36,665 nt of DNA from Sandaracinaceae bacterium (GTDB lineage Bacteria; Myxococcota_A; Polyangia; Polyangiales; JADJQN01), in contig CANKOL010000007.1 in NCBI GenBank assembly GCA_947483975.1, positions 1 to 36,665 on the forward strand, read 5' to 3'. Below the pieces are notes generated by a model. That model saw only the letters and a program-made list of their open reading frames with translations. It had not been told where the DNA came from and ran no database searches. The position numbers and the translations under genes are program-made. Every line of letters starts with the position of its first letter. Position 1 is the stretch's first letter. Positions 2,893 through 36,665 of this stretch are shown piece by piece.

Positions 2893-4667
2893 GCGCACGC
2901 CTCCTCGGCGGTCTGCGCGTTCGTCATGGGGAGTGGTCCGTGGGAGTGCGTCGCCGGGAGGCTCGGCGGGAACTCCGAAGGAGAGGTCGAGCGCGCGAGC
3001 CTGAGGCGAGGCTCGGCCGGCGCGTCATCGGGCACGGTCTTGCCGTTCATCAGGGGCAAGCACCACGTCGCGAGGCCAGGGATCTGCACGTCGAGCCAGT
3101 ACGAGCGCCAGTCGAGGTCGCGCACGTTCCACGCGAAGTGCCCGCGCTCCGACGGCACGAGGCGCGCGCTGAGCGCCTCCATCCTGTCGGTGCGGTACTC
3201 CCAGTCGTGGTCGTGAATGAAGGGCTTGTAGAGCACCAGCATCTGATCGACGCGCCGCAACAGCGTCTCGAGTCCGCTCGTCGCGGAGTGCGCGCGCTCC
3301 TGTGTGCGCGACACCTGCTCGCCAGCGAGCTTGCGCATCGGATAGGGCAGCGCCTCGTCGAGGCGCATCTCGTGGAGCCAGCCGCGCACGCTCTTCGCGT
3401 GCCGACGCAGCGTCGGGATCGAGAGCAGCGAGCGACGCTCGGCGGGGACTGGCACAGCGTCGAGGTAGCGGAAGAGCATCCGCTCGAGGCTGCTCGCGCC
3501 CGGGCGATCGTGGTGTTTGCGCACGCCGAGCGCGGTCAGCTCGACGGCGCGACCGACGGTGAACGGACGCGCGTGCGAGGTGCCCATCTGGACGACCTCT
3601 GGCGCGGTGTCAGCGACCGCGGCGGCGACGACCAGCATCGTGCCCTTGGCGACGTCGTCGACCGGCACGACGTCGAAGCGCACGTCGGGGCGGCACGGCA
3701 ATTCGAAGAACGGGCCCGCGAGCAGCCACACCAGCGGTCCGCTCGTGTTGATGCCCTCGTTCCAGCCCGCGAACGGATAGGTGCGCGCGCACTCGACGAT
3801 GGCCGGACGCACGACGCTCACGCGCACATCGGTGCGCTCGGCGAGCAGCTGCTCCGCGAGCGCCTTCGAGAGCGTGTAGGTGTTCGGGAACGAGAGCTCC
3901 CGCGCGTACACGCCGCCAGCCTCCGCGCGCTCCTTGCGCAGCGCCGCGCCGCGCCGCTCGCTCACCGCCTCGACCGCGTCGGCGCGGGCGAGCAGCGTCT
4001 CGGTCACCGCGCGCACGTCGAAGACGTCGCCGTCGGGCGTGACGCCCCGCGCCGGCAGCTCGTCGATGCGCCCAGCGCGCTTGCCCGCGACGAAGCACGT
4101 CGAGACGTGCACGAGGCGCGGCTCACGCATGCGCGCGGTCACGTCGGCGATGTGCAGCGCGCCGTGCACGTTGACCTCGACGGCGTCCTTCGGGTCCGGC
4201 TCGAAGTCCGTGAGCCCGGCGAAATGCACGACCAAGTCCACGGTCTCGGCCAGCCGCGCGAGCTCGTCCGCGGCGATCCCACAGAGCGGCAGCGAGACAT
4301 CCCCCGCGACGACGTCGAGCTTCTCGTCGAGGTACGCGCCGAGGCGCGCGCCGTGCGTGGCGCGCAGCGGTCGGAGCGCCGGCGAGGTGGCCGCGATCTT
4401 CTCGAAGCGCGCCGTCGCGGCGACCGTCGGATCACCCTTCGAGCGGCGCGGCGGCCGCACGAGCACCGACACTCGGCCGACCTCCGGCACGAGGTCGAGC
4501 AGCATCCCGAGCCAGGTCTTGCCGAGAAAGCCCGTCACGCCCGTGACGAGCAGGTGCTTGCCCGCGAGCGCGCCGTGCACGGAGAGCTCGCGCACCGTGC
4601 TCTCCGTCGCGTGGAGATTCGCCTGAATGTTCGTGCTTCCGTTCGTCTTCATCGTCGTCGCCTTCAC
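2889..4667 (-). CDS. Fatty acyl-CoA reductase-like protein (NAD_binding_4 plus C-terminal Sterile-like domain)
   Basis: TGVTGFLGK, HVST, PNTYTLSKALAE, VRPAIV, DVVPVD and C-terminal DWRSYW..QIPGL are typical FAR motifs; GTGA overlap with the upstream HAD gene. Confidence 0.82.
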   Translation of the reverse strand: MKATTMKTNGSTNIQANLHATESTVRELSVHGALAGKHLLVTGVTGFLGKTWLGMLLDLVPEVGRVSVLVRPPRRSKGDPTVAATARFEKIAATSPALRPLRATHGARLGAYLDEKLDVVAGDVSLPLCGIAADELARLAETVDLVVHFAGLTDFEPDPKDAVEVNVHGALHIADVTARMREPRLVHVSTCFVAGKRAGRIDELPARGVTPDGDVFDVRAVTETLLARADAVEAVSERRGAALRKERAEAGGVYARELSFPNTYTLSKALAEQLLAERTDVRVSVVRPAIVECARTYPFAGWNEGINTSGPLVWLLAGPFFELPCRPDVRFDVVPVDDVAKGTMLVVAAAVADTAPEVVQMGTSHARPFTVGRAVELTALGVRKHHDRPGASSLERMLFRYLDAVPVPAERRSLLSIPTLRRHAKSVRGWLHEMRLDEALPYPMRKLAGEQVSRTQERAHSATSGLETLLRRVDQMLVLYKPFIHDHDWEYRTDRMEALSARLVPSERGHFAWNVRDLDWRSYWLDVQIPGLATWCLPLMNGKTVPDDAPAEPRLRLARSTSPSEFPPSLPATHSHGPLPMTNAQTAEEACA

Positions 4668-12494: not shown

Positions 12495-13205
12495 TCAGCC
12501 GAGCGGGATACCGATCGTCAGCGCGGCCAGATCTTGCTCGGAGGCGGCCTCGATGCGCGTCGCGAATTCCGCGCGCAGCATCTGCTTGGTCCGCGCAAAC
12601 GCGACGTCCGGCAGCGTCGCCATCGCGCGCGCCTCGACGAGCGCGAGCTCGGTCAGCGCGTGCGGCGGCACCACTCGATCGACCATGCCCTTCTCGAGCG
12701 CGACGCCAGGCAAATACAGCTCGCCGCGCAGCACGGCGCCGGTCCACGAGGTCGGCGGGAGCGTCGCCTTCACGAGCTCACAGCCGAAGGTCGGCAGCGG
12801 GATCCCGATCGCGACCTCCCGGAGGCCGATGTGGAAGCTACCCTCCGCCATGATGCGGTAGTCGCTCGCGAGCGCGAGGATCGCGCCGCCCGCGATCGCG
12901 TGCCCGCCGACGGCGCACACGACGGGGCGCGGAAACAGAAACAGCCGCAGCATCAGCTGCTGATAGTCCCGCACGAAGGAGCGCAGCCCGTCGCGCCCGA
13001 GCGTCGGCAGCACCTTCAGGTCGAGCCCCGCGCAGAAGCGCCCCTCGCGCCCCTCGAGGAGCACCGCGCCCACGTCGCGCTCCGCGAGGTCGAGCGCCGC
13101 GCTCAGCTCCGCGACCCAGCGAGCCTCGATCGTGTTGGCCTTTCCGTCGTCGAGCCTGATGCGCAGCACGCGCCCATCGAGTGTGGAGTGGAGCTTGTCC
13201 GCCAT
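12495..13205 (-). CDS. Enoyl-CoA hydratase/isomerase (crotonase) family protein
   Basis: KANTI, FCAGLDL, PVVCAVGGHAIAGGAILALASDYR, IGLREVAIG; start trimmed to ATG 13205. Confidence 0.92.
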   Translation of the reverse strand: MADKLHSTLDGRVLRIRLDDGKANTIEARWVAELSAALDLAERDVGAVLLEGREGRFCAGLDLKVLPTLGRDGLRSFVRDYQQLMLRLFLFPRPVVCAVGGHAIAGGAILALASDYRIMAEGSFHIGLREVAIGIPLPTFGCELVKATLPPTSWTGAVLRGELYLPGVALEKGMVDRVVPPHALTELALVEARAMATLPDVAFARTKQMLRAEFATRIEAASEQDLAALTIGIPLG

Positions 13206-13291
13206 GCGGCGGAGCATCGCGGCGCGGCTCGCACTGCGCAAGCGGAACGCACGGTGCGCGCACGTCGCGGCGTGCGCTAAGCTGCCGGCGC

Positions 13292-14353
13292 ATGCCGACC
13301 GCAGAGCGCGAGTGGATGATCTATGGGGCGACGGGCTACACGGGGATGCTCATCGCCGAGCGCGCCGCAGAGGAAGGCCTCAAGCCGGTGCTCGCCGGTC
13401 GAGACGACGTGAAGGTCCGCGCGATCGCGGGGCGCCTCGGTCTGCCGTGGCGCGTCTTCTCGCTCGACGACCCGCACGCCGCGAGAGAGGGCGTCGCGGG
13501 CATGGCCCTCGTGCTCCACTGCGCGGGGCCGTTCTCGGCGACGAGCCGCCCGATGCTCGACGCCTGCCTCGCGGGGCACGCGCACTACCTCGACATCACG
13601 GGCGAGATCGACGTCTTCGAGGCCTGCTATGCGCGGGACGCCGAGGCGAAGGCGCGCGGCATCGTCGTCATGCCTGGAGTCGGCTTCGACGTGGTGCCCA
13701 CGGACTGCCTCGCGCGCCTGCTCGCGCATCGCCTCCCCGGCGCGACCAAGCTCGAGCTAGGCATCGCGGCGCTCGGCAAGATCAGCCAGGGCACCGCGAA
13801 GAGCGCGACGGAGGGGCTGCCGCAGGGGACGCGCGCGCGCCGCGCCGGGAAGGTCACCAAGATCGCGCCGCTCGTGCGGACGATCGAGTTCGCGGGCAAG
13901 TCGCGGAAGGCGATGGCGATGTCGTGGGGCGACGTCGCGAGCGCGTATCGCACGACGGGCATCCCGAACATCACCGTGTACATGGCGTTCCCGCCCGCGA
14001 TGATCACGACGGCGCGCGCCGTGCGACACCTGATGCCGGCGCTCGGCCTCGCGCCCGTGCAGCGCACGCTCAAGTCGCTGATCGAGCGCCGCGTCTCGCC
14101 GCCGACCGCCGAGGAGCGCGCGCGCGGACGTTCGCTCGTGTGGGGGCGCGTCGAGGACGAAGCCCATCGCTGCGTCGAAGGCCAGCTGAGCTGCGGCGAG
14201 GGCTACGACTTCACCGTCGCCTCGTCGCTCGCGATCGTCAGCAAGGTCCTCGCTGGCGCGGCGCCCATCGGCGCGACGACGCCCGCGCGCGCGCTCGGGG
14301 GCGACTTCGTGCGCACGCTGCCGGACGTCACCGTGACGCTCGCCGGGGCGTGA
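13292..14353 (+). CDS. Saccharopine dehydrogenase-like NADP-binding protein (trans-acting enoyl reductase family)
   Basis: YGATGYTG, LAGRD, LHCAGPF, YLDITGE, GVGFDVVPTD, SQGT; start trimmed to ATG 13292. Confidence 0.9.
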   Translation: MPTAEREWMIYGATGYTGMLIAERAAEEGLKPVLAGRDDVKVRAIAGRLGLPWRVFSLDDPHAAREGVAGMALVLHCAGPFSATSRPMLDACLAGHAHYLDITGEIDVFEACYARDAEAKARGIVVMPGVGFDVVPTDCLARLLAHRLPGATKLELGIAALGKISQGTAKSATEGLPQGTRARRAGKVTKIAPLVRTIEFAGKSRKAMAMSWGDVASAYRTTGIPNITVYMAFPPAMITTARAVRHLMPALGLAPVQRTLKSLIERRVSPPTAEERARGRSLVWGRVEDEAHRCVEGQLSCGEGYDFTVASSLAIVSKVLAGAAPIGATTPARALGGDFVRTLPDVTVTLAGA

Positions 14354-15438
14354 GCGTGAGCGTCGGCGCAGGGATCGACGCGGCGCGTCCCGTGCGCGCG
14401 GGCGAAGAGCTCGACGTGGGCAAGCTGAGCGCGTTCCTCGAGGCGCACCTCGTGGGCGGGCTCGGCGGCGCGCTCGAGATCACGCAGTTTCCCGCCGGGC
14501 ACTCCAACCTCACCTACCTACTCCGCGCCGGCGAGCGCGAGTACGTGCTGCGGCGCCCGCCCTTCGGCAGCAAGGTCAAGAGCGCGCACGATATGGGGCG
14601 CGAGGTGAAGCTGCTCGCGCCGCTCAGCGCCGTGTATCCAAAGGCACCGAAGCCGCTCGTCTACTGCGACGACGAGTCCGTGCTCGGCGCGCCGTTTTAC
14701 GTGATGGAGCGGCTTCGCGGGCGCATCTTGCGGCACGCCGCGCCCAAGGACGTCGACTTCTCGGCGCCCGTCGCGCGCGCGCTCTCGGAGGCGCTGATCG
14801 ACGAGCTGGCCGCGCTGCACGCGCTCGACTGGCGCGCCGCGGGGCTCGGCGGGCTCGGCAAGCCCGAGGGCTACGTCGCGCGACAGGTGAGCGGCTGGAC
14901 GAAGCGCTCGCACGACGCGACGACGGACGCCGTGCCGGAGCTGGTGCGCGTCGGTGAGTGGCTCGCGGAGCATCTGCCGCCCGAGAGCGGCGCGGTCCTC
15001 GTTCACAACGACTTCAAGTACGACAACGTCGTGCTCGCGCCCGACGACGTCACGCGCATCGTGGGCGTGCTCGACTGGGAGATGTCCACGATCGGCGATC
15101 CGCTCGTCGACCTCGGCGTGACGCTCGGCTACTGGGTCGAGGCTGGCGACGACCCGCGCCTGCGCGCCCTGCCCTTCGGTCCGACCGATGTGCCGGGCTC
15201 CCTCTCGCGGCGCGAGCTCGCCGCGCGCTATGCGCAGGTGACGGGGCGCGACGTCTCGAAGGTCCTCTATTACTATGTTTTCGCGCTCTTCAAGACCGCC
15301 GTCGTCTTGCAGCAAATCTACTATCGCTACCGGCACGGGCTGACCCAAGACGAGCGCTTCGCGGCGCTCGGCGCGGCAGTCGCGCTCCTCGCAGAGACGG
15401 CGAGCCGGGTGCTCACGCGCGGAGTGATCGGACGTTGA
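14350..15438 (+). CDS. APH/choline-kinase-like phosphotransferase (ACAD10/11 N-terminal type)
   Basis: QFPAGHSNLTY, VLRRPP, AHDMGRE, PFYVME, HNDFKYDN, VLDWEMSTIGDPLVDLG; GTG start overlaps the upstream TGA. Confidence 0.9.
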   Translation: MSVSVGAGIDAARPVRAGEELDVGKLSAFLEAHLVGGLGGALEITQFPAGHSNLTYLLRAGEREYVLRRPPFGSKVKSAHDMGREVKLLAPLSAVYPKAPKPLVYCDDESVLGAPFYVMERLRGRILRHAAPKDVDFSAPVARALSEALIDELAALHALDWRAAGLGGLGKPEGYVARQVSGWTKRSHDATTDAVPELVRVGEWLAEHLPPESGAVLVHNDFKYDNVVLAPDDVTRIVGVLDWEMSTIGDPLVDLGVTLGYWVEAGDDPRLRALPFGPTDVPGSLSRRELAARYAQVTGRDVSKVLYYYVFALFKTAVVLQQIYYRYRHGLTQDERFAALGAAVALLAETASRVLTRGVIGR

Positions 15439-30421: not shown

Positions 30422-33400
30422 TCAGAGGTTGGCGGCGCCGGGGGTGACCGTGGACGTGAAGACCCAGTCGGTCTGGTCGTCCGCGCTGTCGTTGCCATTG
30501 GGCATCCGCGCGAGCGAGCCGACGGCCGTGTTGGAGTCAGCGGCGAGCGTGCGGCGTCCGGCCACGAGCGCGACCGCGGGGCCGCCCATCGTCACGGCCG
30601 CGGTGATCGCGCTCTCGTAGGAGAGCGCGTCGATGACGGCGCCGGTCGCGGTGTCGATCAGCGCGATGGCGTCGCCGGGGTCGGTCGCGGCGGTTCCGCC
30701 GTTCTGCACGGCGGCGAGCGAGATGACGGTCGTTCCTGCGGGGACGACGACCGCGGCCGACGCGAGCATCAAGTACGCGTGGCCGGCGAGCGAGCCGGTC
30801 AGCGGATAGGTCCCGTAGATCGACGTCGCGCCGCTGCCGTTGATCAGGACGACGGAGAGTCCGGTGAGCGTTCGCGCCGTGGCGCTCGGGTTGTAGATCT
30901 CGATGAACTCGGTGGTGTCGGTCCCGACCTGGTCGTAGTCGACCTCGTTGATGACGAGGTCTGCGGGCGGAGCAGCGACGACCGAGACGTCCGTGCCGAA
31001 GACCGCGAGGTCGAGCGTCGCGCTGACGTGCACGGTGGCCACCGCGGCGCCCGCCGTGAAGGTGAAGGTCGCGCTCAGCGCGTCCGCAGGGATGAGCACG
31101 GTCGCGGGCACCGTGCCGCCGGTCCCCGAGGCGAGCAGAACGGTCGTACCGCCGACGGGCGCGGGGAGGTTCAGCGTGACGGTGAAGGTCGCCATGCCAT
31201 CGATGCGCACGGTCGGCAGGAGCGGCGTGAGGCTCGTCAGCACGGGCACTTCGGTCGCACCGATCACGCGCACGGCGGCCGTCCGCGGCGTCCCGTCGAG
31301 GGTCGCCGTGACGGTGTATGGAGTGGCCGACATCGTCACGCCCGTGACGGGCACGACGACGCTGGTCGCGCCGGTCGGCACGACGACGTCCGCGACGACG
31401 AGCCCCGCGGCGCTCGAGGTCACCGTCACGGTCGTCGGCGCGGTCGCCGCGCGAGAGAGACGCACCGTCAGCGGCGCCGGGAAGGTGGGCGCCGCGACGC
31501 TGCCGACGCGCGTGAAGGTGAGCGCGGGCTCGAGGGCGACGATCACGGGCACGCCGCTCGAGACGACGTCGGCGGCGCTGCGCGGGAGCAGCTTGCTGTC
31601 GCCGTTGCGCAGCGCGAGCACGCCGGTGATGGACGAGTACGTGTCGCCGACGACGGGGAACGGCGTCGTGAGGTAGGCGAAGTCGTCGACGCGCAGGCCA
31701 TCGGCGACGAACTCGTTCGTCGGCGCGACGTCGGAGACGCCTGGCGCAGGCGCGATGTCCGTGACCGTCACGGCGCCGGTCTGCACGAGCACGCCCTCGA
31801 GGGCCGCCGCGCGCGCGCCGCCCGTCGTCAGCTCGGCCGTCGTCGCCGCGACGGGCGCGGGCAGCTCGTGGCCGCTCGACACGATCACCACCGTCGCGGT
31901 CGAGAGCTCGATCTGCCCATTGAAGACCGCGACCGTCGCGGTCGTCAGGTCGACGAGGTCGCCCATCGCCGCGGTCGGGGCCGCGCCCGTGTAGACGAAC
32001 ACGCCCGAGTTGTCGAAGCCGAGGTCACCCAGCGAGCCGGGCACGACCTGCATGAAGAAGCCGTTCGGACCGACCGCCGTGACGACCGCACCGCGGATGC
32101 CGACGAGCGCGCCGACGGCCACTACGCCGGTCTTCACGTCGTAGATCGTGCCGGGGCACGCGCTGCCGCCGGGGTTCGCGACCATCGGGCACGCGTCACA
32201 GAGGTCACCGAGGAGATCGCTGTCCGCGTCCGCCTGATCGGCGTTCGGGATCGACGCGCAGTTGTCGACGGCGTTGAGCACGCCGTCGCGATCGGTGTCG
32301 TTCGGGTTCACCGTGCTGCAGACGGTGGTGTCGGCGTCGAGCGGGCAGACGTCGCAGGAGTCGCCCGCGCCGTCGAGGTCGAAGTCCGCCTGCACGCCGT
32401 TGTCGAGCGGACGCACCGGGTTGAACACGCGCGGGCAGTTGTCCATCGCGTCGGGGAAGCCGTCGCCGTCGCCGTCCGTCCCGTCGATCACGCCCGTGTA
32501 ACGCGTGGAGCCATTGACCACGGGCGAAGGGGTCGCGCCGTTGCGGTCCGGAACGCACGAGGGCTCGTTGTCCGGCGCTCCGCAGAAGAAGAGCCCGTAC
32601 GCGGTGCCCTTCGCCACGGTGAGCGCGGCGAGGGTCTGCCCCGCTTCGCGCATCACGCACACGCGCTTCGGCGTGCCGCACACGTCCAAGGTGTCGCACG
32701 TCGCGCCGCCGGCAGGCATCGCCTCGATCAGCGCCGCGTCGCCGTAGAGCGGCGTGCCGCCGCGCACGACGAGCATCACGTCCGCGGGCTCGGCGTCGAT
32801 CACCGCGCGGTGGTCGGTGTGCACGCGCGCGTCGAAGATCGCGAGGTCCGCCACCTTGCCGACAGCGATCGTGCCGATCACATCGTCGACCGCGAGCGCC
32901 GCCGCAGAGTCGCGCGTCGCCATCAGCCAGAGCTGCTCGTCGGTGAAGAAGTTGTCGTAGTAGAGCGAGTTCAGCTCATCCGCGCACTGAAGCTCGCGGA
33001 GCATGTTCATCGAGCCGGTCGGGGTCCAGTCCGTGCCGAGCGCGATCTGCACGCCGAGGCGCGCGAACTCGGTCACGCGCGCCGTGTCGCCGTAGAGCGT
33101 GATGTTCGAGCGCGGCGACCAGATGAGCGCGGTGCCGTCGGTGCCCATCTCTGCGATGTCCGGCGGCAGGAGCCCGACGCCGTGGATGAACGCGCTCTGC
33201 GGCTGCACGAGGTCCGTCGTGCCCGCGCGCATGCAGAGGAACTCGTTGCGCGCGACCGAGTCGATGCCCTCGGCGACGTGCGGCGTGTACGAGGCGAACC
33301 GGCTGATCGACGCCGTCGTGCTGACGCCGGGATAGCCGCAGCCCATCTCGGGCGTGAGCTGCGTGCCGGCGGAGTCGCCGAGCGGGAAGGTGTCGTACTC

Positions 33401-34090
33401 GGCCGCGGGCTGACCGAGGCCCTCGCTCAGCGCGCCGTCGAGGTTGCGGAGCATCCCCGCCGCGCTGCCCGAACCGTTGATGCTGGTGCCGCCGCCGAGC
33501 ACGAAGCGCAGCTCGCCCCAGGTCATCTGAGCGGCCGAGGCCCCGCCCGCCGCGGGGATACTGTTGTGTCCGCGGAGATGCTTGCGCCAGTCGTGGCGCT
33601 GCTCGTAGCGCTCGTCGGTGCGGTTGTACGGGGAGTTCTGCGTGAAGGTCAGGTGGTCATGCGCGTTGACGAGGCCAGGCGACACGACGCCGTTCGGGCA
33701 GACGATGGCCGTCGCCCCCGCGGCGCTCGCGGCGCTCGCGCAGTCACAGCCGACGCACTCGATGGTGCCGCCCGCAGAGACGGCGACCTGCCCGCCGCGG
33801 AAGATCTCGCCCGGCGTGAGCACGTCCGCGGTGATCAGCATCGCGGCCGTGCCGGCGGTGATCTCACAGCGCCCGCCCGCCGCAGGGGGCAGCGCGTCGC
33901 CAGGGCAGATGGTGATCCGCGGGCCGACGACGGGCATTCCGCCGTCCGGCACGGCGCTGTCGCCGAGGTCCACTCGGCCGCCGTCGTTCGGCGTGGGTCG
34001 AACATCGTCGTCCCCACAGCCAACCAACCCGACGCCGACGAGTGCTGCTGCGAGCACCACCGAAATCACTCGAACGTTCTGCGCGCGCAT
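30422..34090 (-). CDS. Large lipoprotein: amidohydrolase domain, thrombospondin type 3 repeats, OB-fold, Ig-like repeats, lamin tail domain
   Basis: Lipobox LVGC-GDDD; PGLVNAHDH, HVAEG, IHGVG, ALGTD, GKVADL; DGDGDG..D..DNCP..NP repeats; VVTAV..NGFFMQ..SGVFVY..GDLV; LVINEVDYD...EFIEIYN. Confidence 0.85.
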   Translation of the reverse strand: MRAQNVRVISVVLAAALVGVGLVGCGDDDVRPTPNDGGRVDLGDSAVPDGGMPVVGPRITICPGDALPPAAGGRCEITAGTAAMLITADVLTPGEIFRGGQVAVSAGGTIECVGCDCASAASAAGATAIVCPNGVVSPGLVNAHDHLTFTQNSPYNRTDERYEQRHDWRKHLRGHNSIPAAGGASAAQMTWGELRFVLGGGTSINGSGSAAGMLRNLDGALSEGLGQPAAEYDTFPLGDSAGTQLTPEMGCGYPGVSTTASISRFASYTPHVAEGIDSVARNEFLCMRAGTTDLVQPQSAFIHGVGLLPPDIAEMGTDGTALIWSPRSNITLYGDTARVTEFARLGVQIALGTDWTPTGSMNMLRELQCADELNSLYYDNFFTDEQLWLMATRDSAAALAVDDVIGTIAVGKVADLAIFDARVHTDHRAVIDAEPADVMLVVRGGTPLYGDAALIEAMPAGGATCDTLDVCGTPKRVCVMREAGQTLAALTVAKGTAYGLFFCGAPDNEPSCVPDRNGATPSPVVNGSTRYTGVIDGTDGDGDGFPDAMDNCPRVFNPVRPLDNGVQADFDLDGAGDSCDVCPLDADTTVCSTVNPNDTDRDGVLNAVDNCASIPNADQADADSDLLGDLCDACPMVANPGGSACPGTIYDVKTGVVAVGALVGIRGAVVTAVGPNGFFMQVVPGSLGDLGFDNSGVFVYTGAAPTAAMGDLVDLTTATVAVFNGQIELSTATVVIVSSGHELPAPVAATTAELTTGGARAAALEGVLVQTGAVTVTDIAPAPGVSDVAPTNEFVADGLRVDDFAYLTTPFPVVGDTYSSITGVLALRNGDSKLLPRSAADVVSSGVPVIVALEPALTFTRVGSVAAPTFPAPLTVRLSRAATAPTTVTVTSSAAGLVVADVVVPTGATSVVVPVTGVTMSATPYTVTATLDGTPRTAAVRVIGATEVPVLTSLTPLLPTVRIDGMATFTVTLNLPAPVGGTTVLLASGTGGTVPATVLIPADALSATFTFTAGAAVATVHVSATLDLAVFGTDVSVVAAPPADLVINEVDYDQVGTDTTEFIEIYNPSATARTLTGLSVVLINGSGATSIYGTYPLTGSLAGHAYLMLASAAVVVPAGTTVISLAAVQNGGTAATDPGDAIALIDTATGAVIDALSYESAITAAVTMGGPAVALVAGRRTLAADSNTAVGSLARMPNGNDSADDQTDWVFTSTVTPGAANL

Positions 34091-34184: not shown

Positions 34185-34469
34185 TCAGAGCGTCTCGACG
34201 CTCTTGAGCATCTCGTTGATGTAGTGCACGCGCGGCTGGATCAGCGTGTCGCGGCGCGTGCGGCGCAGGACGCTGATGCCGCTGACGTCGGGCCCCTGCG
34301 TGCCGCCCGAGACGGCGTGATCGTCGAACCGATACTCGGTGACCGGCGCGCCTCCGTTGGCGGGCGTGCGCGAGGTCCCCGGGCGGGGCTCCTGCGCCAG
34401 CGCGCCTCCGACGGTGAGAGAAGCCGCCAGGAGGGTGAGAGCGAGAGCAGCAGCGAGCGTCTTCTTCAT
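34185..34469 (-). CDS. Small secreted CglF/GltF-like (gliding motility family) protein
   Basis: Signal peptide (ALA-Q), GAGGAG RBS; C-terminal Y.FDD..V.G....P......R.....LI.PR..Y..EMLKSVE.L pattern as recalled for the CglF family. Confidence 0.65.
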   Translation of the reverse strand: MKKTLAAALALTLLAASLTVGGALAQEPRPGTSRTPANGGAPVTEYRFDDHAVSGGTQGPDVSGISVLRRTRRDTLIQPRVHYINEMLKSVETL

Positions 34470-34547
34470 GGGCGTCTCCTCGGCGGCCGGGACTGCGGCG
34501 CGCACAGTGGACGCCAGACGGACGACCGCCGCGGATGGTCTCTCCGT

Positions 34548-34630
34548 CCGACCTCAACCTTGGTCATCCGCTCGCGCAGCCTTGGTCACCCGCTCGCGGC
34601 GCCGACCTCAACCTTGGTCGTGCGCTTCCG
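34548..34630 (+). repeat. Cluster of REP-like direct repeats upstream of the RAYT
   Basis: CCGACCTCAACCTTGGTC at 34548-34565 and 34602-34619; partial copy CCTTGGTCACCCGCTCGCG at 34580-34598 echoes CCTTGGTCATCCGCTCGCG of the first copy. Confidence 0.85.
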
Positions 34631-34718
34631 CATGCGACGCCGCCGGCGGCCTGGCGGCGGCCGCCAGCGATTCCGCCAATTGGCCTCCGTAACCCTTTGA
34701 AATCACACGCCCGCTCTC

Positions 34719-34734
34719 CGGCACACGCCCTGCT
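34719..34734 (+). promoter_or_regulatory. Sigma54-like -24/-12 promoter upstream of the RAYT
   Basis: CGGCACACGCCCTGCT: GG at 34720-34721 and GC at 34732-34733 with the canonical 10-nt spacing of TGGCAC-N5-TTGC. Confidence 0.4.
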
Positions 34735-34746
34735 CTGCGTCCGCGC

Positions 34747-35652
34747 ATGTCCCGCGCTCGCCCGGTCATCGCCGGCTCGTCCGTCCTCGTCACGCGCCGA
34801 ATACTGCGCCGGCACTTCCTGCTGCGCCCCGACAGCGACTCGCGCCAGCTCTTCGTCTACGCGCTCGCGGTCTCGGCCGCGCGCTACGGGCTGCAGGTCC
34901 ACTCATTCTGCGTGATGTCGACTCACTACCACCTCGTCGCGACCGATGTGCGCGGCGAGCTGCCGGACTTTCTCGCTCACTTCCATCGGTCGATGGCGCT
35001 CGGCCTCAAGGTGGTCCGCAAGTGGGAGGGCGCGGCGTGGGACGACGCGCAGACGTCGGCAGTCCGACTCAAGACGCCCGAGGCGATCCTCGACAAAGTG
35101 GGATACACGCTCGCCAATCCCGTCGCCTCTGGCCTCGTGCGCTACGCGCGCGACTGGCCCGGCGCGAAGAGCCGCGTCGCCGATCTCGCCGGCGGCCGCA
35201 TGCGCGCCGCGCGCCCCGACTACTACTTCGACCCCGAGAACGACGACTGGCCTGACTACGCCGACCTCGAGCTCACGCTCCCGCCGAGCGTCGCGCCCGA
35301 AGACGCCGACGCCTGGCGCGACGCCGCCCGCGCGTCCGTCACCGACCACGAGACGCGCGGCCGCTCGGAGGTCGGCGAGAAGGGCTGGAACTTCGTCGGC
35401 GCAGAGCGCGTCGAGAAGGCATCTCCATACGACCGCGCGACGAGCTTCGAGCCGCTCGTGTCCCGCAATCCGACCTTCGCCGTCGGCGCCGTCGCCGGCG
35501 CGTACAAGGCAGCCGTCAAGGAGTTGCGCGCGTTCGCCGCCGCCTACGAGGCCGCCCTCGAGCGATGGTGTGCGGGCTTCCGAGACGCAGTGTTCCCCGC
35601 CGGCACCTGGTGGATGGTGCGCCACCACGGCGCGGCCGTTGCCACCGCCTAG
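34747..35652 (+). mobile_element. REP-associated tyrosine transposase (RAYT, Y1 HUH family) with long C-terminal extension
   Basis: LVTRR, FCVMSTHYHLV (HUH), YTLANPVASGLV (catalytic Tyr, NPV), DWPG; 301 aa; flanked by repeats. Confidence 0.9.
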
Positions 35653-35800
35653 CGCCGCCCGACGCGCTGACGACGAACGAGGCAGCCGCTGAGCGCTTGG
35701 CCGCGGGAGACGTACGTCTGCGCGGCGTGTAAGGGTGGGTTGCGAGGCCGAAAACGCGCAGAAGCGGGCCCTGAGCGGGCTCGCGCGCGGCCCCGCGGTC

Positions 35801-36010
35801 CAAGGAGCGCCCGGCGAGTGCCGTTGACGGGCGCGCGCGAGGAGGAATTCGTCAGCTGGAGCCGTGAGTGGTTCCTACTCGAAGCTCAACCTCGGTCAGG
35901 TCGCGCAAGGAGCGCCCGGCGAGTGTCGTTGACGGGCGCGCGCGAGGAGGAATTCGTCACCTGGAGCCGTGAATGGTTCCTACTCGAAGCTCAACCTCGG
36001 TCAGGTCGCG
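35801..36010 (+). repeat. Tandem duplication, 2 x 105 bp
   Basis: Units 35801-35905 and 35906-36010 differ at 3 positions; each ends in GCTCAACCTCGGTCAGGTCGCG. Confidence 0.95.
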
Positions 36011-36103
36011 CGTTTTCGTCGCCGCGTGACGGGCTTCGCGCGGCGTCTGTCCTCCTGCGGGCACTCCTGTGCCATTTGTAGGCGCCTGAACGGTCCGACG
36101 CGC

Positions 36104-36664
36104 TCAACCACAGTCCATCTCACTCGTACAGCAGCCGCGACTTTCCATGCAAGAGATTACACACGGTACCGTGAACTCCCCGTTCGTCGCGCAACTCTCC
36201 TGACAGCGGTCCTTGACGTTGTATCTGCAGTTTGTGTTGTGCCGAGCCCCATCCATCCCATCACTGCGCGTTGAACCGCTCGCGGGTCTTGAACGTCTGC
36301 TGTCCCGTTCTTCGGCCAACGCCTGGCGATCACTCCGTCGCTGCGCGTCCGCCTCGGCACGTTCCTCCCGACGTCGGACCGCTTCGTCCGCACGCGCCTG
36401 CGCTCGTGCCGCGGCCAACCGTGCCGAGCGCGCCTGGTCGAGAACCCGCGCAAGCCCCGGACTGACGTCCGCCAATTCAGCACGGAGTCCCTGTATGTTC
36501 TCGTCCGCGAGGCCGTCTAGCACTACTGCGACAGCTACCGCCTGAATTTGCTCGTGAATCCAGGAATCGTCTGCGAGAAATTTCTCTTTCACACGCGAGG
36601 TGTGATCTACGTTCGGCATGCAGACCTGGAAGGACGCCGACGCGAGCCGTCGGCTGGAAGCGTA
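36104..36664 (-). CDS. Hypothetical protein with Cys-rich C-terminus, probably 5'-truncated by the window edge
   Basis: The frame of ORF 36104-36619 stays open to the right edge; coiled-coil-like Arg/Ala/Glu stretch, then 8 Cys in about 40 aa; lower GC (33 of 60 nt at 36121-36180). Confidence 0.55.
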   Translation of the reverse strand, partial: YASSRRLASASFQVCMPNVDHTSRVKEKFLADDSWIHEQIQAVAVAVVLDGLADENIQGLRAELADVSPGLARVLDQARSARLAAARAQARADEAVRRREERAEADAQRRSDRQALAEERDSRRSRPASGSTRSDGMDGARHNTNCRYNVKDRCQESCATNGEFTVPCVISCMESRGCCTSEMDCG

Positions 36665-36665
36665 C

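Follow-up and report, generated by a model that had tools for sequence, protein, structure and literature searches.

A family of TnpA-REP-like Y1 nucleases in Myxococcota with a short candidate end motif that recurs in same-strand tandem arrays

Introduction

Repetitive extragenic palindromes (REPs) are described as hairpins of 20–40 nt with a 5′ GT[AG]G that occur mostly in inverted pairs, and the E. coli enzyme that accompanies them, TnpA-REP, as a protein of about 165 amino acids (aa) encoded by a single-copy gene (PMC3479197, PMC8266576 and PMC2817692). TnpA-REP is a monomer whose mode of action is unlike that of the IS200/IS605 transposases (PMC3479197), and the genes for REP-associated tyrosine transposases (RAYTs) of groups 2 and 3 are single-copy and vertically inherited (Bertels 2017). 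Here, we describe a locus related to these systems in a 36,665-bp stretch of DNA from an uncultured lake myxobacterium, where a gene for a 301-aa nuclease of the Y1/HUH type has copies of a short motif, referred to below as the core, on both sides. The stretch, which we call the window, is the entire contig C7 of assembly G000 (5.29 Mb in 524 contigs, 71.1% GC, 81% complete); G001 denotes a genome of the same genus.

The closest known concept for this locus is the TIRYT, or TIRtron. Di Nocera, De Gregorio & Rocco 2013 (PMC3733652) gave these names to RAYT-like genes with non-REP flanking repeats, the Y1 gene being longer and the repeats being unlike GTAG REPs and usually inverted. Such repeats form moderately abundant families in some genomes, where they stand ‘in dimers or clusters’, and a GGGGWSAS motif lies in the flanking repeat of a subset of TIRYTs (PMC3733652). 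As far as a narrow literature search shows, which met the word in only two distinct works, TIRYTs have had no follow-up since 2013. An earlier note on this DNA, made from its letters alone, had read the arrangement as a non-canonical REP system; the TIRYTs of PMC3733652 are a precedent for it. Long-tailed class-2 Y1 subclasses were in turn described by Quentin et al. 2018 (PMC6006769) as ‘not associated with REP’, so that long-tailed nucleases of the RAYT type are reported there to be without cognate repeats; subclass 2.1 has tails like HTH/DnaA_C domains and is prevalent in delta-proteobacteria among others, and subclass 2.3 has insertions in the core of the protein and occurs in Chromatiales/Alteromonadales. 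The main texts of PMC2817692, PMC3733652, PMC6006769 and PMC5581495 name no myxobacteria, nor do two supplements of PMC6006769, and a literature search with the motif strings matched only two unrelated papers.

On the evidence set out below, the window probably holds one copy of a Y1/HUH nuclease element of the REPtron/TIRtron kind, belonging to a large and so far unnamed family of ~300-aa proteins in Polyangiales/Myxococcota, with the core as its cognate end motif. It is a variant within the repeat-associated transposase systems already described, rather than something different in kind.

The nuclease and its family

Judged by its sequence and predicted structure, the gene (Table 1) is an intact HUH/Y1 nuclease gene with the TnpA-REP fold and catalytic residues. 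H60, H62 and Y120 do not vary across 64 aligned family sequences, in which N124 and P125 reach at least 90% conservation. The window protein has no match in Pfam at E ≤ 1, Y1_Tnp included, and reaches 38.4 bits against the NCBIfam model REP_Tyr_transpos (NF047646), under the model cut-off of 80, while Y1_Tnp is matched by 21 of the 64 family members at E ≤ 0.01. When the family profile is compared with solved structures, the best match is E. coli TnpA-REP (4er8_A, E 4.8e-5), with the HUH motif and YxxxNP..WP aligned. The same structure heads both comparisons made with an AlphaFold model of the full protein (pLDDT 97): in Foldseek with E 2.1e-6, TM 0.74 and a root mean square deviation (rmsd) of 2.2 over 149 columns, and in VIA with Z 14.2 and an rmsd of 2.9 over 156 residues, IS608 TnpA (2vhg_A) being next at Z 8.8. 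The C-terminal half (about residues 140–301) is conserved across the family, gave no Pfam or PDB sequence match, and has unnamed Myxococcota clusters as its neighbours in the atlas; modelled alone it is weak (pLDDT 73.5, pTM 0.40, best fold match Z 3.6), and in the full model it packs on the protein core as one body (pTM 0.94).

Table 1. Coordinates of the nuclease gene, its leader and the repeats around it in the window
Feature	Position	Strand	Remarks
Upstream (left) array	34548–34619	+	Two full cores CTCAACCTTGGTC (34553–34565, 34607–34619), one partial (34576–34587), 54-nt period
Conserved family leader	34636–34746	+	Inverted repeat, conserved box, sigma-54-type element
GC-rich inverted repeat CTGGCGGC-G-GCCGCCAG	34651–34667	+	Within leader
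Conserved GTAACCCTTTGAAATCAC	34689–34706	+	Within leader
Sigma-54-type −24/−12 element GGCACACGCCCTGC (GGCAC-N7-GC)	34720–34733	+	27 nt before ATG
HUH/Y1 nuclease gene, TnpA-REP type, 301 aa	34747–35652	+	H60-Y-H62, Y120, N124-P125 intact
Downstream (right) array	35801–36011	+	105-bp unit × 2.0, 97% matches; each unit ends in core CTCAACCTCGGTC (35885–35897, 35990–36002)
Degenerate core TCAACCACAGTC, two mismatches	36104–36115	+	

Among 1.84 billion representatives, 3,551 proteins match at E ≤ 1e-3, and 494 do so at E ≤ 1e-30; most are about 300 aa long and align over their whole length. Relatives that carry names are called ‘transposase’ in Sorangium and Minicystis and ‘REP element-mobilizing transposase RayT’ in JGI records, and the named genome records are Polyangiales, Myxococcales or Deltaproteobacteria metagenome-assembled genomes. 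Within the order, the protein is present in 20 of 41 genomes (G000 counted), with up to 20 matches per genome. G000 itself has six complete paralogs with 61–81% amino-acid identity and two more copies cut by contig ends, on C56 (1–130) and C399 (1–131); the leader on C56 is nearly identical to that on C139, so this copy could have arisen by recent duplication or reflect a variant in the assembly. Another Y1_Tnp gene of G000, IS200-like and unrelated to the family, lies on contig C47 at 14140–14364 and passes the Pfam cut-off (33 bits). The core described next gives this very large family (3,551 representative clusters at the looser threshold) a short, defined and testable candidate recognition motif.

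The core at the ends of the gene

In the window, two copies of CTCAACCTYGGTC precede the gene and two follow it, all four on the + strand, as the earlier note had said and as both the sequence and a pattern scan confirm. Exact TCAACCTYGGTC stands at 34554–34565, 34608–34619, 35886–35897 and 35991–36002, each time with a C before it, which gives CTCAACCT[TC]GGTC starting at 34553, 34607, 35885 and 35990; the partial upstream copy that had also been reported is present as CCTTGGTC with the same 3′ spacer (34576–34587). Matches with at most one mismatch number six in the window against 0.17 expected (sd 0.40), and none of 100 shuffles reaches six. The two downstream cores count as one event because both sit in a single 105-bp tandem duplication, each unit of which also contains a GC hairpin (about 35807–35834 in the first). 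A wider similarity that had been drawn between GGTCGTGCGCTTCCG (34616–34630) and GGTCGCGCGTTTTCG (36004–36018) is correct as a count, 12 of 15, but the two strings are out of register with the core, since GGTCGCGCGTTTTCG begins 5 nt after the core's own GGTC.

The same association is found throughout the family. Core variants (YCAAC-NNN-GGTC) lie on both sides of all six complete paralogs of G000, at −120 to −370 and +235 to +390, and homologs in other genera are flanked as well, which upholds the proposal that the motif is tied to a long RAYT-like clade. We pooled 58 distinct full-length loci, made up of order-genome loci, extra copies and 26 metagenome loci, and scanned them for the strict pattern CAAC-N2-3-GGT[CG], downstream from 150 to 450 nt past the stop codon. 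On the downstream side, 22 of 45 loci have the pattern on the gene strand and none of the 45 has it on the other; upstream, 14 of 54 loci have it on the opposite strand, five have it on the gene strand (one of which, L083, is ambiguous) and the rest have none. Far-flank controls gave 2+/1− of 49 and 0+/3− of 42. These counts are lower bounds, because variants such as CTCAAGGTGGGTCGG escape the pattern, and BLAST of upstream against downstream flanks recovered core-containing inverted repeats of 10–35 nt in 16 distinct loci. Two metagenome contig records have a variant right-end unit. Chance or slippage alone as the cause of the motif–gene association is ruled out by the shuffles, the paralogs and the homologous-locus counts.

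A block duplication in another genome, G016, is bounded by the motif. Two sites 13 kb apart have 1,436 bp in common at 99.3% identity, and this block starts and ends at inverted copies of CCAACCTGGTCACGATCTCCCCC; its ends read inverted CCAACCTGGTC and then ACGATCTCCCC, and are themselves tandemly doubled, with no target duplication seen. The core is thus the end motif of the family, and the gene together with its ends moved or was duplicated as a block. In the search for empty sites, G033 offered no usable synteny for the G016 copies, and for the window element synteny with G001 stops after the 1,222-aa gene.

Dispersal of the core through the genome

Counted genome-wide, with orientation and intergenic bias, the core is present far beyond the gene family in G000: there are 78 exact copies on 34 contigs, where a composition estimate expects fewer than one by chance. 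The relaxed form YCAACNNNGGTCGG occurs 112 times (reversed control 0), compared with 52 times in genome G021 (control 7) and one to 17 times in each of the other 39 genomes, and a weight matrix finds about 150 copies in G000 at a threshold where the reversed matrix gives four. The copies form 31 clusters of two to nine with a spacing of 17–123 nt, and all 31 are single-stranded in orientation, every copy in a cluster lying on the same strand. Coding-like open reading frames (ORFs) cover 71% of the genome; 22 of the 31 arrays lie outside them, and 20 are away from any paralog, with no gene remnant within 2.5 kb. Spacers are specific to each locus, and neighbouring copies are often alike only in the 13–15-nt core. 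The dispersed variant is the one that flanks the gene on both sides in C7 and upstream in C460; 69 of the 78 exact TCAACCTYGGTC copies are on contigs other than C7, C460 and C69, and the window-flanking 16-mer ACCTCAACCTTGGTCG occurs 26 times in G000.

This spread is specific to certain lineages. G001 has one gene and 15 copies of CAACNNNGGTCGG, six beside the gene and about nine scattered, and the nine-copy array of G000 contig C333 is missing from the orthologous G001 spacer (433 vs 167 bp); the region of the C38 array has no G001 counterpart. G021 has same-strand arrays of the same kind. Expansion is thus confined to two of the 20 genomes with the gene, and is found in none of the 21 searched genomes where the gene was not found. 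The pair of G000 and G001, one with and one without genome-wide spread, is a natural comparison within a genus, and the arrays bear on the origin of short tandem arrays in GC-rich genomes. Where array periodicity starts and ends relative to the core is scattered, with offsets of 0–27 and 0–20 over 44 repeat pairs, and a fixed cleavage phase was sought in these boundaries and abandoned for that reason. A composite form of the repeat occurs on G000 contig C5 at 13155–13349, where an 88-nt unit has paired cores 7 nt apart after a GTTTTACC..GGTAAAAC inverted repeat.

A rival to be weighed against these data is that the element is no more than an insertion sequence, autonomous and with composite ends; the arrays would then be solo ends left by deleted copies, together with replication slippage, and the core would never have been mobilised separately. 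Such an element would fit a multi-copy family (six complete and two truncated members in G000 and up to 20 matches in relatives) and the G016 block duplicate with its inverted ends, and slippage predicts the scattered array phases. We consider it improbable nonetheless: 20 arrays have neither gene nor leader remnant nearby, neighbouring cores are often alike in 13–15 nt only and not in their spacers, the spacers are specific to each locus, which decayed copies of one element end would not be, and G001, of the same genus, has the gene but no solo arrays.

Orientation and structure of the core

The core extends over 14–16 nt, (A)(C/G)C-YCAACC-NN-GGTCGG, and is a quasi-palindrome, C[AG]ACC-NN-GGT[CT]G, with half-sites that are symmetric in genome G025 and in loci L009 and L026, where they read CGACC..GGTCG. 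Its orientation therefore rests on two asymmetric positions together with the flanks, and locus L083 is scored as direct only because its end is nearly symmetric. In the window the left array is on the gene strand, a state we call direct. The direct-type copies of G000 (C7, C460 and C127) form one clade with 98/95 support, whose sister clade is of the inverted type (C69, G001, C139 and C119), and the outgroups are mostly inverted; the direct layout is thus derived. A direct layout also occurs in metagenome locus L099. A single genome offers natural variants of end orientation, inverted, direct and absent.

The earlier note had built on the same-strand ends of the window a model in which they would allow single-strand excision, circularisation or duplication of the intervening DNA as in IS200/IS605, with cleavage at TCAA. 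Some of the data suit it: the three direct-type copies are a clade that duplicated at least twice, L099 adds a further direct-type locus, and the direct-type core variant TCAACCTYGGTC is the one dispersed genome-wide, with 69 of 78 copies off C7, C460 and C69. Same orientation does not hold as a rule for the clade, however, since the direct state is a minority among the upstream cores (five of 54 loci, one of them ambiguous, against 14 on the opposite strand), and inverted-type copies have multiplied too (C139/C119 and the G016 pair). Nor is TCAA a conserved feature, the T before CAAC being present in 73% of cases in G000 and replaced by C, G or A elsewhere, and metagenome contigs showed no joints or circles. 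The nearest solved relative, TnpA-REP, is moreover a monomer that acts unlike IS200/IS605 (PMC3479197). On balance we regard this model as very unlikely.

Hairpins were examined as a basis for recognition of the core, and the hypothesis was rejected. A stem of at least 4 bp with the 5′ flank is possible in 26 of 116 copies, and inverted repeats near the core are at shuffle level (seven of 38 singles and eight of 77 array members, against 11.7%). The 4–5-bp stem (GACC...GGTC) seen earlier in the window is borne out for the upstream copies, with a DNA fold z of −2.3, but not for the downstream ones (z −0.5). Only seven of 116 copies have GT[AG]G in the 12 nt on the 5′ side of the core, and Rfam returned no match at E ≤ 1. 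The core is not a REP, having neither a conserved hairpin nor GTAG, and the description of the motif as a non-GTAG, weakly structured element is sustained by the same counts. In this way the family may help to show what guides HUH/Y1 enzymes to their sites when hairpins play no part.

In relatives such as L026, L028, L084 and L121 the codons for A-N-P-V in the catalytic helix read CAACCCGGTC, which fits the core pattern (nt 369–384 of the gene). Eight of ten in-gene matches to the pattern fall at these codons, and the window copy has AAT there and no match. This likeness is probably a coincidence.

Comparison with described systems

The features that link the locus to TIRtrons are the longer RAYT-like Y1 gene, the flanking repeats without GTAG and the clustered repeat family, here 31 clusters of two to nine copies; in relatives from G016, moreover, the element end has GGGGAGAT beside the core, which agrees with GGGGWSAS at seven of eight positions. 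The differences are that the common core here is only 14–16 nt long and quasi-palindromic, that the left copy may be inverted, direct or absent, being on the same strand as the right one in the window, that dispersed copies form same-strand tandem arrays with locus-specific spacers, and that the window flanks lack GGGGWSAS.

With REPtrons, the family has in common TnpA-REP (4ER8) as the nearest relative of its catalytic half, the class-2 Y---NP signature, and a cognate repeat that stands on both sides of the gene and recurs elsewhere in the genome. It departs from them in lacking a conserved hairpin, with GT[AG]G near only seven of 116 copies, and in having no inverted doublets (REPINs/BIMEs), all 31 multi-copy clusters being single-strand; the protein is also longer, at 301 aa, and its gene is present as six complete and two truncated paralogs in G000 and as a 99.3% identical pair in G016. 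By description, the class-2 Y1 domain, the long conserved C-terminal tails and the several diverged copies per genome recall the subclasses 2.1 and 2.3 of Quentin, which differ in that a cognate flanking motif exists here, and none of the 64 members hits a Bac_DnaA_C, HTH_23 or HTH_28-like Pfam model at E ≤ 0.01, as tails of subclass 2.1 might.

The IS200/IS605 transposases (IS608 and ISDra2 TnpA; 2VHG, 2XM3) share the HUH/Y1 fold with the window protein (Z 8.8 to 2vhg_A). Elements of this group have both end motifs on one strand, as the window copy does. The family nevertheless has Y---NP where IS200/IS605 has Y---Q (Quentin Table 1, PMC6006769), the protein is twice as long (301 vs about 150 aa), conserved subterminal hairpins and tnpB are lacking, the ends are mostly inverted, and the paralogs are 61–81% identical.

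A conserved leader with a sigma-54-type element

Conservation across the family takes in the 110 nt that precede the start codon. A sigma-54 promoter combines a GG and a GC dinucleotide, spaced by 10 nt, within a sequence resembling TGGCACG-N4-TTGC. A matching element, GG[CT]A[CT]-N7-GC at −27 to −31, is present in 39 of 49 leaders and in 2.5% of shuffles, and 41 of 49 leaders, against 3.9% of shuffles, agree with the sigma-54 consensus at nine or more of its 12 specified positions. Near −100, 34 of 49 leaders have a GC-rich inverted repeat (29% of shuffles), and a conserved GAAATCAC box lies between this palindrome and the sigma-54-type element. Scans for sigma-70 promoters and intrinsic terminators gave no sites, and G000 has rpoN on contig C64 (219.6 bits). 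A sigma-54 promoter, together with the palindrome upstream of it, probably governs expression of the family, which would suggest that expression answers to a signal; with the −12 element about 14 nt ahead of the ATG, the transcript would have almost no leader. A literature search found no paper that links sigma-54 to RAYTs.

A leader-like stretch with the same palindrome, the GAAATCAC box and GGCAC..TGC also occurs on the reverse strand of G000 contig C293 at about 3650–3900, before an unrelated ORF of ~95 aa, which hints at a shared regulator. In two metagenome loci (L102 at 1280–1355 and L103 at 455–530) the end of a tRNA-Ala(GGC) gene is 146 nt upstream of the homolog's start codon, a gap that can hold the leader and no more.

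The leader invites the question of whether the core is instead the site of a host double-strand regulator, such as a sigma-54 enhancer-binding or nucleoid protein, and the arrays iteron-like and not moved by the nuclease. The quasi-palindromic core with symmetric half-sites in some relatives (L009, L026), the want of a conserved hairpin (26 of 116, with inverted repeats at shuffle level), the position of upstream arrays just beyond the promoter-like element and palindrome, and the similar leader before the small ORF on C293 are all what a regulator might leave. The most conserved core, however, lies 190–340 nt past the stop codon, where 22 of 45 loci have it on the gene strand and none has it on the other, and this is no place for an activator of the gene; the 99.3% block of G016 ends at the motif; and expansion is seen in two of 20 genomes with the gene and in none of the 21 where it was not found. 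We therefore give a regulator-binding core a small chance only.

A possible mode of action

Returning to the core as the cognate end of a nuclease element, we take its copy about 190–340 nt past the stop codon, on the gene strand, as the constant end motif; an upstream core is often present and usually inverted, being direct in the window copy and its two closest paralogs, and at both ends the core is commonly reiterated two to seven times. If the 3′ site is constant and the 5′ site dispensable, the arrangement would resemble that of one-ended rolling-circle elements. By analogy with TnpA-REP and REPs (PMC3479197, PMC8266576), the protein may recognise the core and nick and rejoin DNA at or near it through Tyr120. 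Nicking and rejoining of this kind could duplicate the whole unit of gene and ends, the form in which duplication is seen in G016, and in G000 and one other genome of the order the core would have spread alone and then been amplified locally into same-strand tandem arrays. Reiterated ends and solo arrays would then be by-products of the enzyme's activity or of slippage. Binding and cleavage by the protein, its part as the mover of the solo arrays and the way the arrays grow are putative in this scheme.

Several points weigh against this reading. By the strict pattern a right-end core is found only in 22 of 45 loci, the others having variants recognised by eye or BLAST, and the left-end core is absent in many, for example L100, L102, L103, L105, L106 and C399, so that the term ‘terminal inverted repeat’ fits only part of the family. 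The paralogs of G000 are old (61–81% identity), so that any movement of the unit with its gene in this genome is not recent. Metagenome contigs from four further lake or freshwater samples, compared with 34300–36400 of the window, broke at the repeats and showed no joints. The scattered array phases fit replication slippage as well as they fit enzyme action, and the quasi-palindromic core would also suit a regulator that binds double-stranded DNA. All counts in G000 are lower bounds, because the assembly is 81% complete and in 524 contigs.

A bolder version, which we offer tentatively and think unlikely as a whole, is that a TnpA-REP-like family of Myxococcota, under a sigma-54 promoter and a palindrome, reads a short core of which only the 3′ copy is constant, reiterates it at the element ends and seeds same-strand arrays. 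It would then be a regulated and possibly one-ended maker or mover of minisatellites, and a flipped left end might have set off the genome-wide spread.

Other features of the window and genome

Just past the right array, an open-ended ORF (36104–36665, −) lies in DNA that by eye looks poorer in G+C than its surroundings, and has no counterpart beside the other paralogs. The most frequent 16-mers of G000, with up to 53 copies (e.g. TCGACGACGACTGCGA), are coding repeats that are aspartate-rich and contain Cys; aspartate-rich repeats of this sort are seen in the large secreted protein of 1,222 aa encoded in the window (ORF 30422–34090, −).

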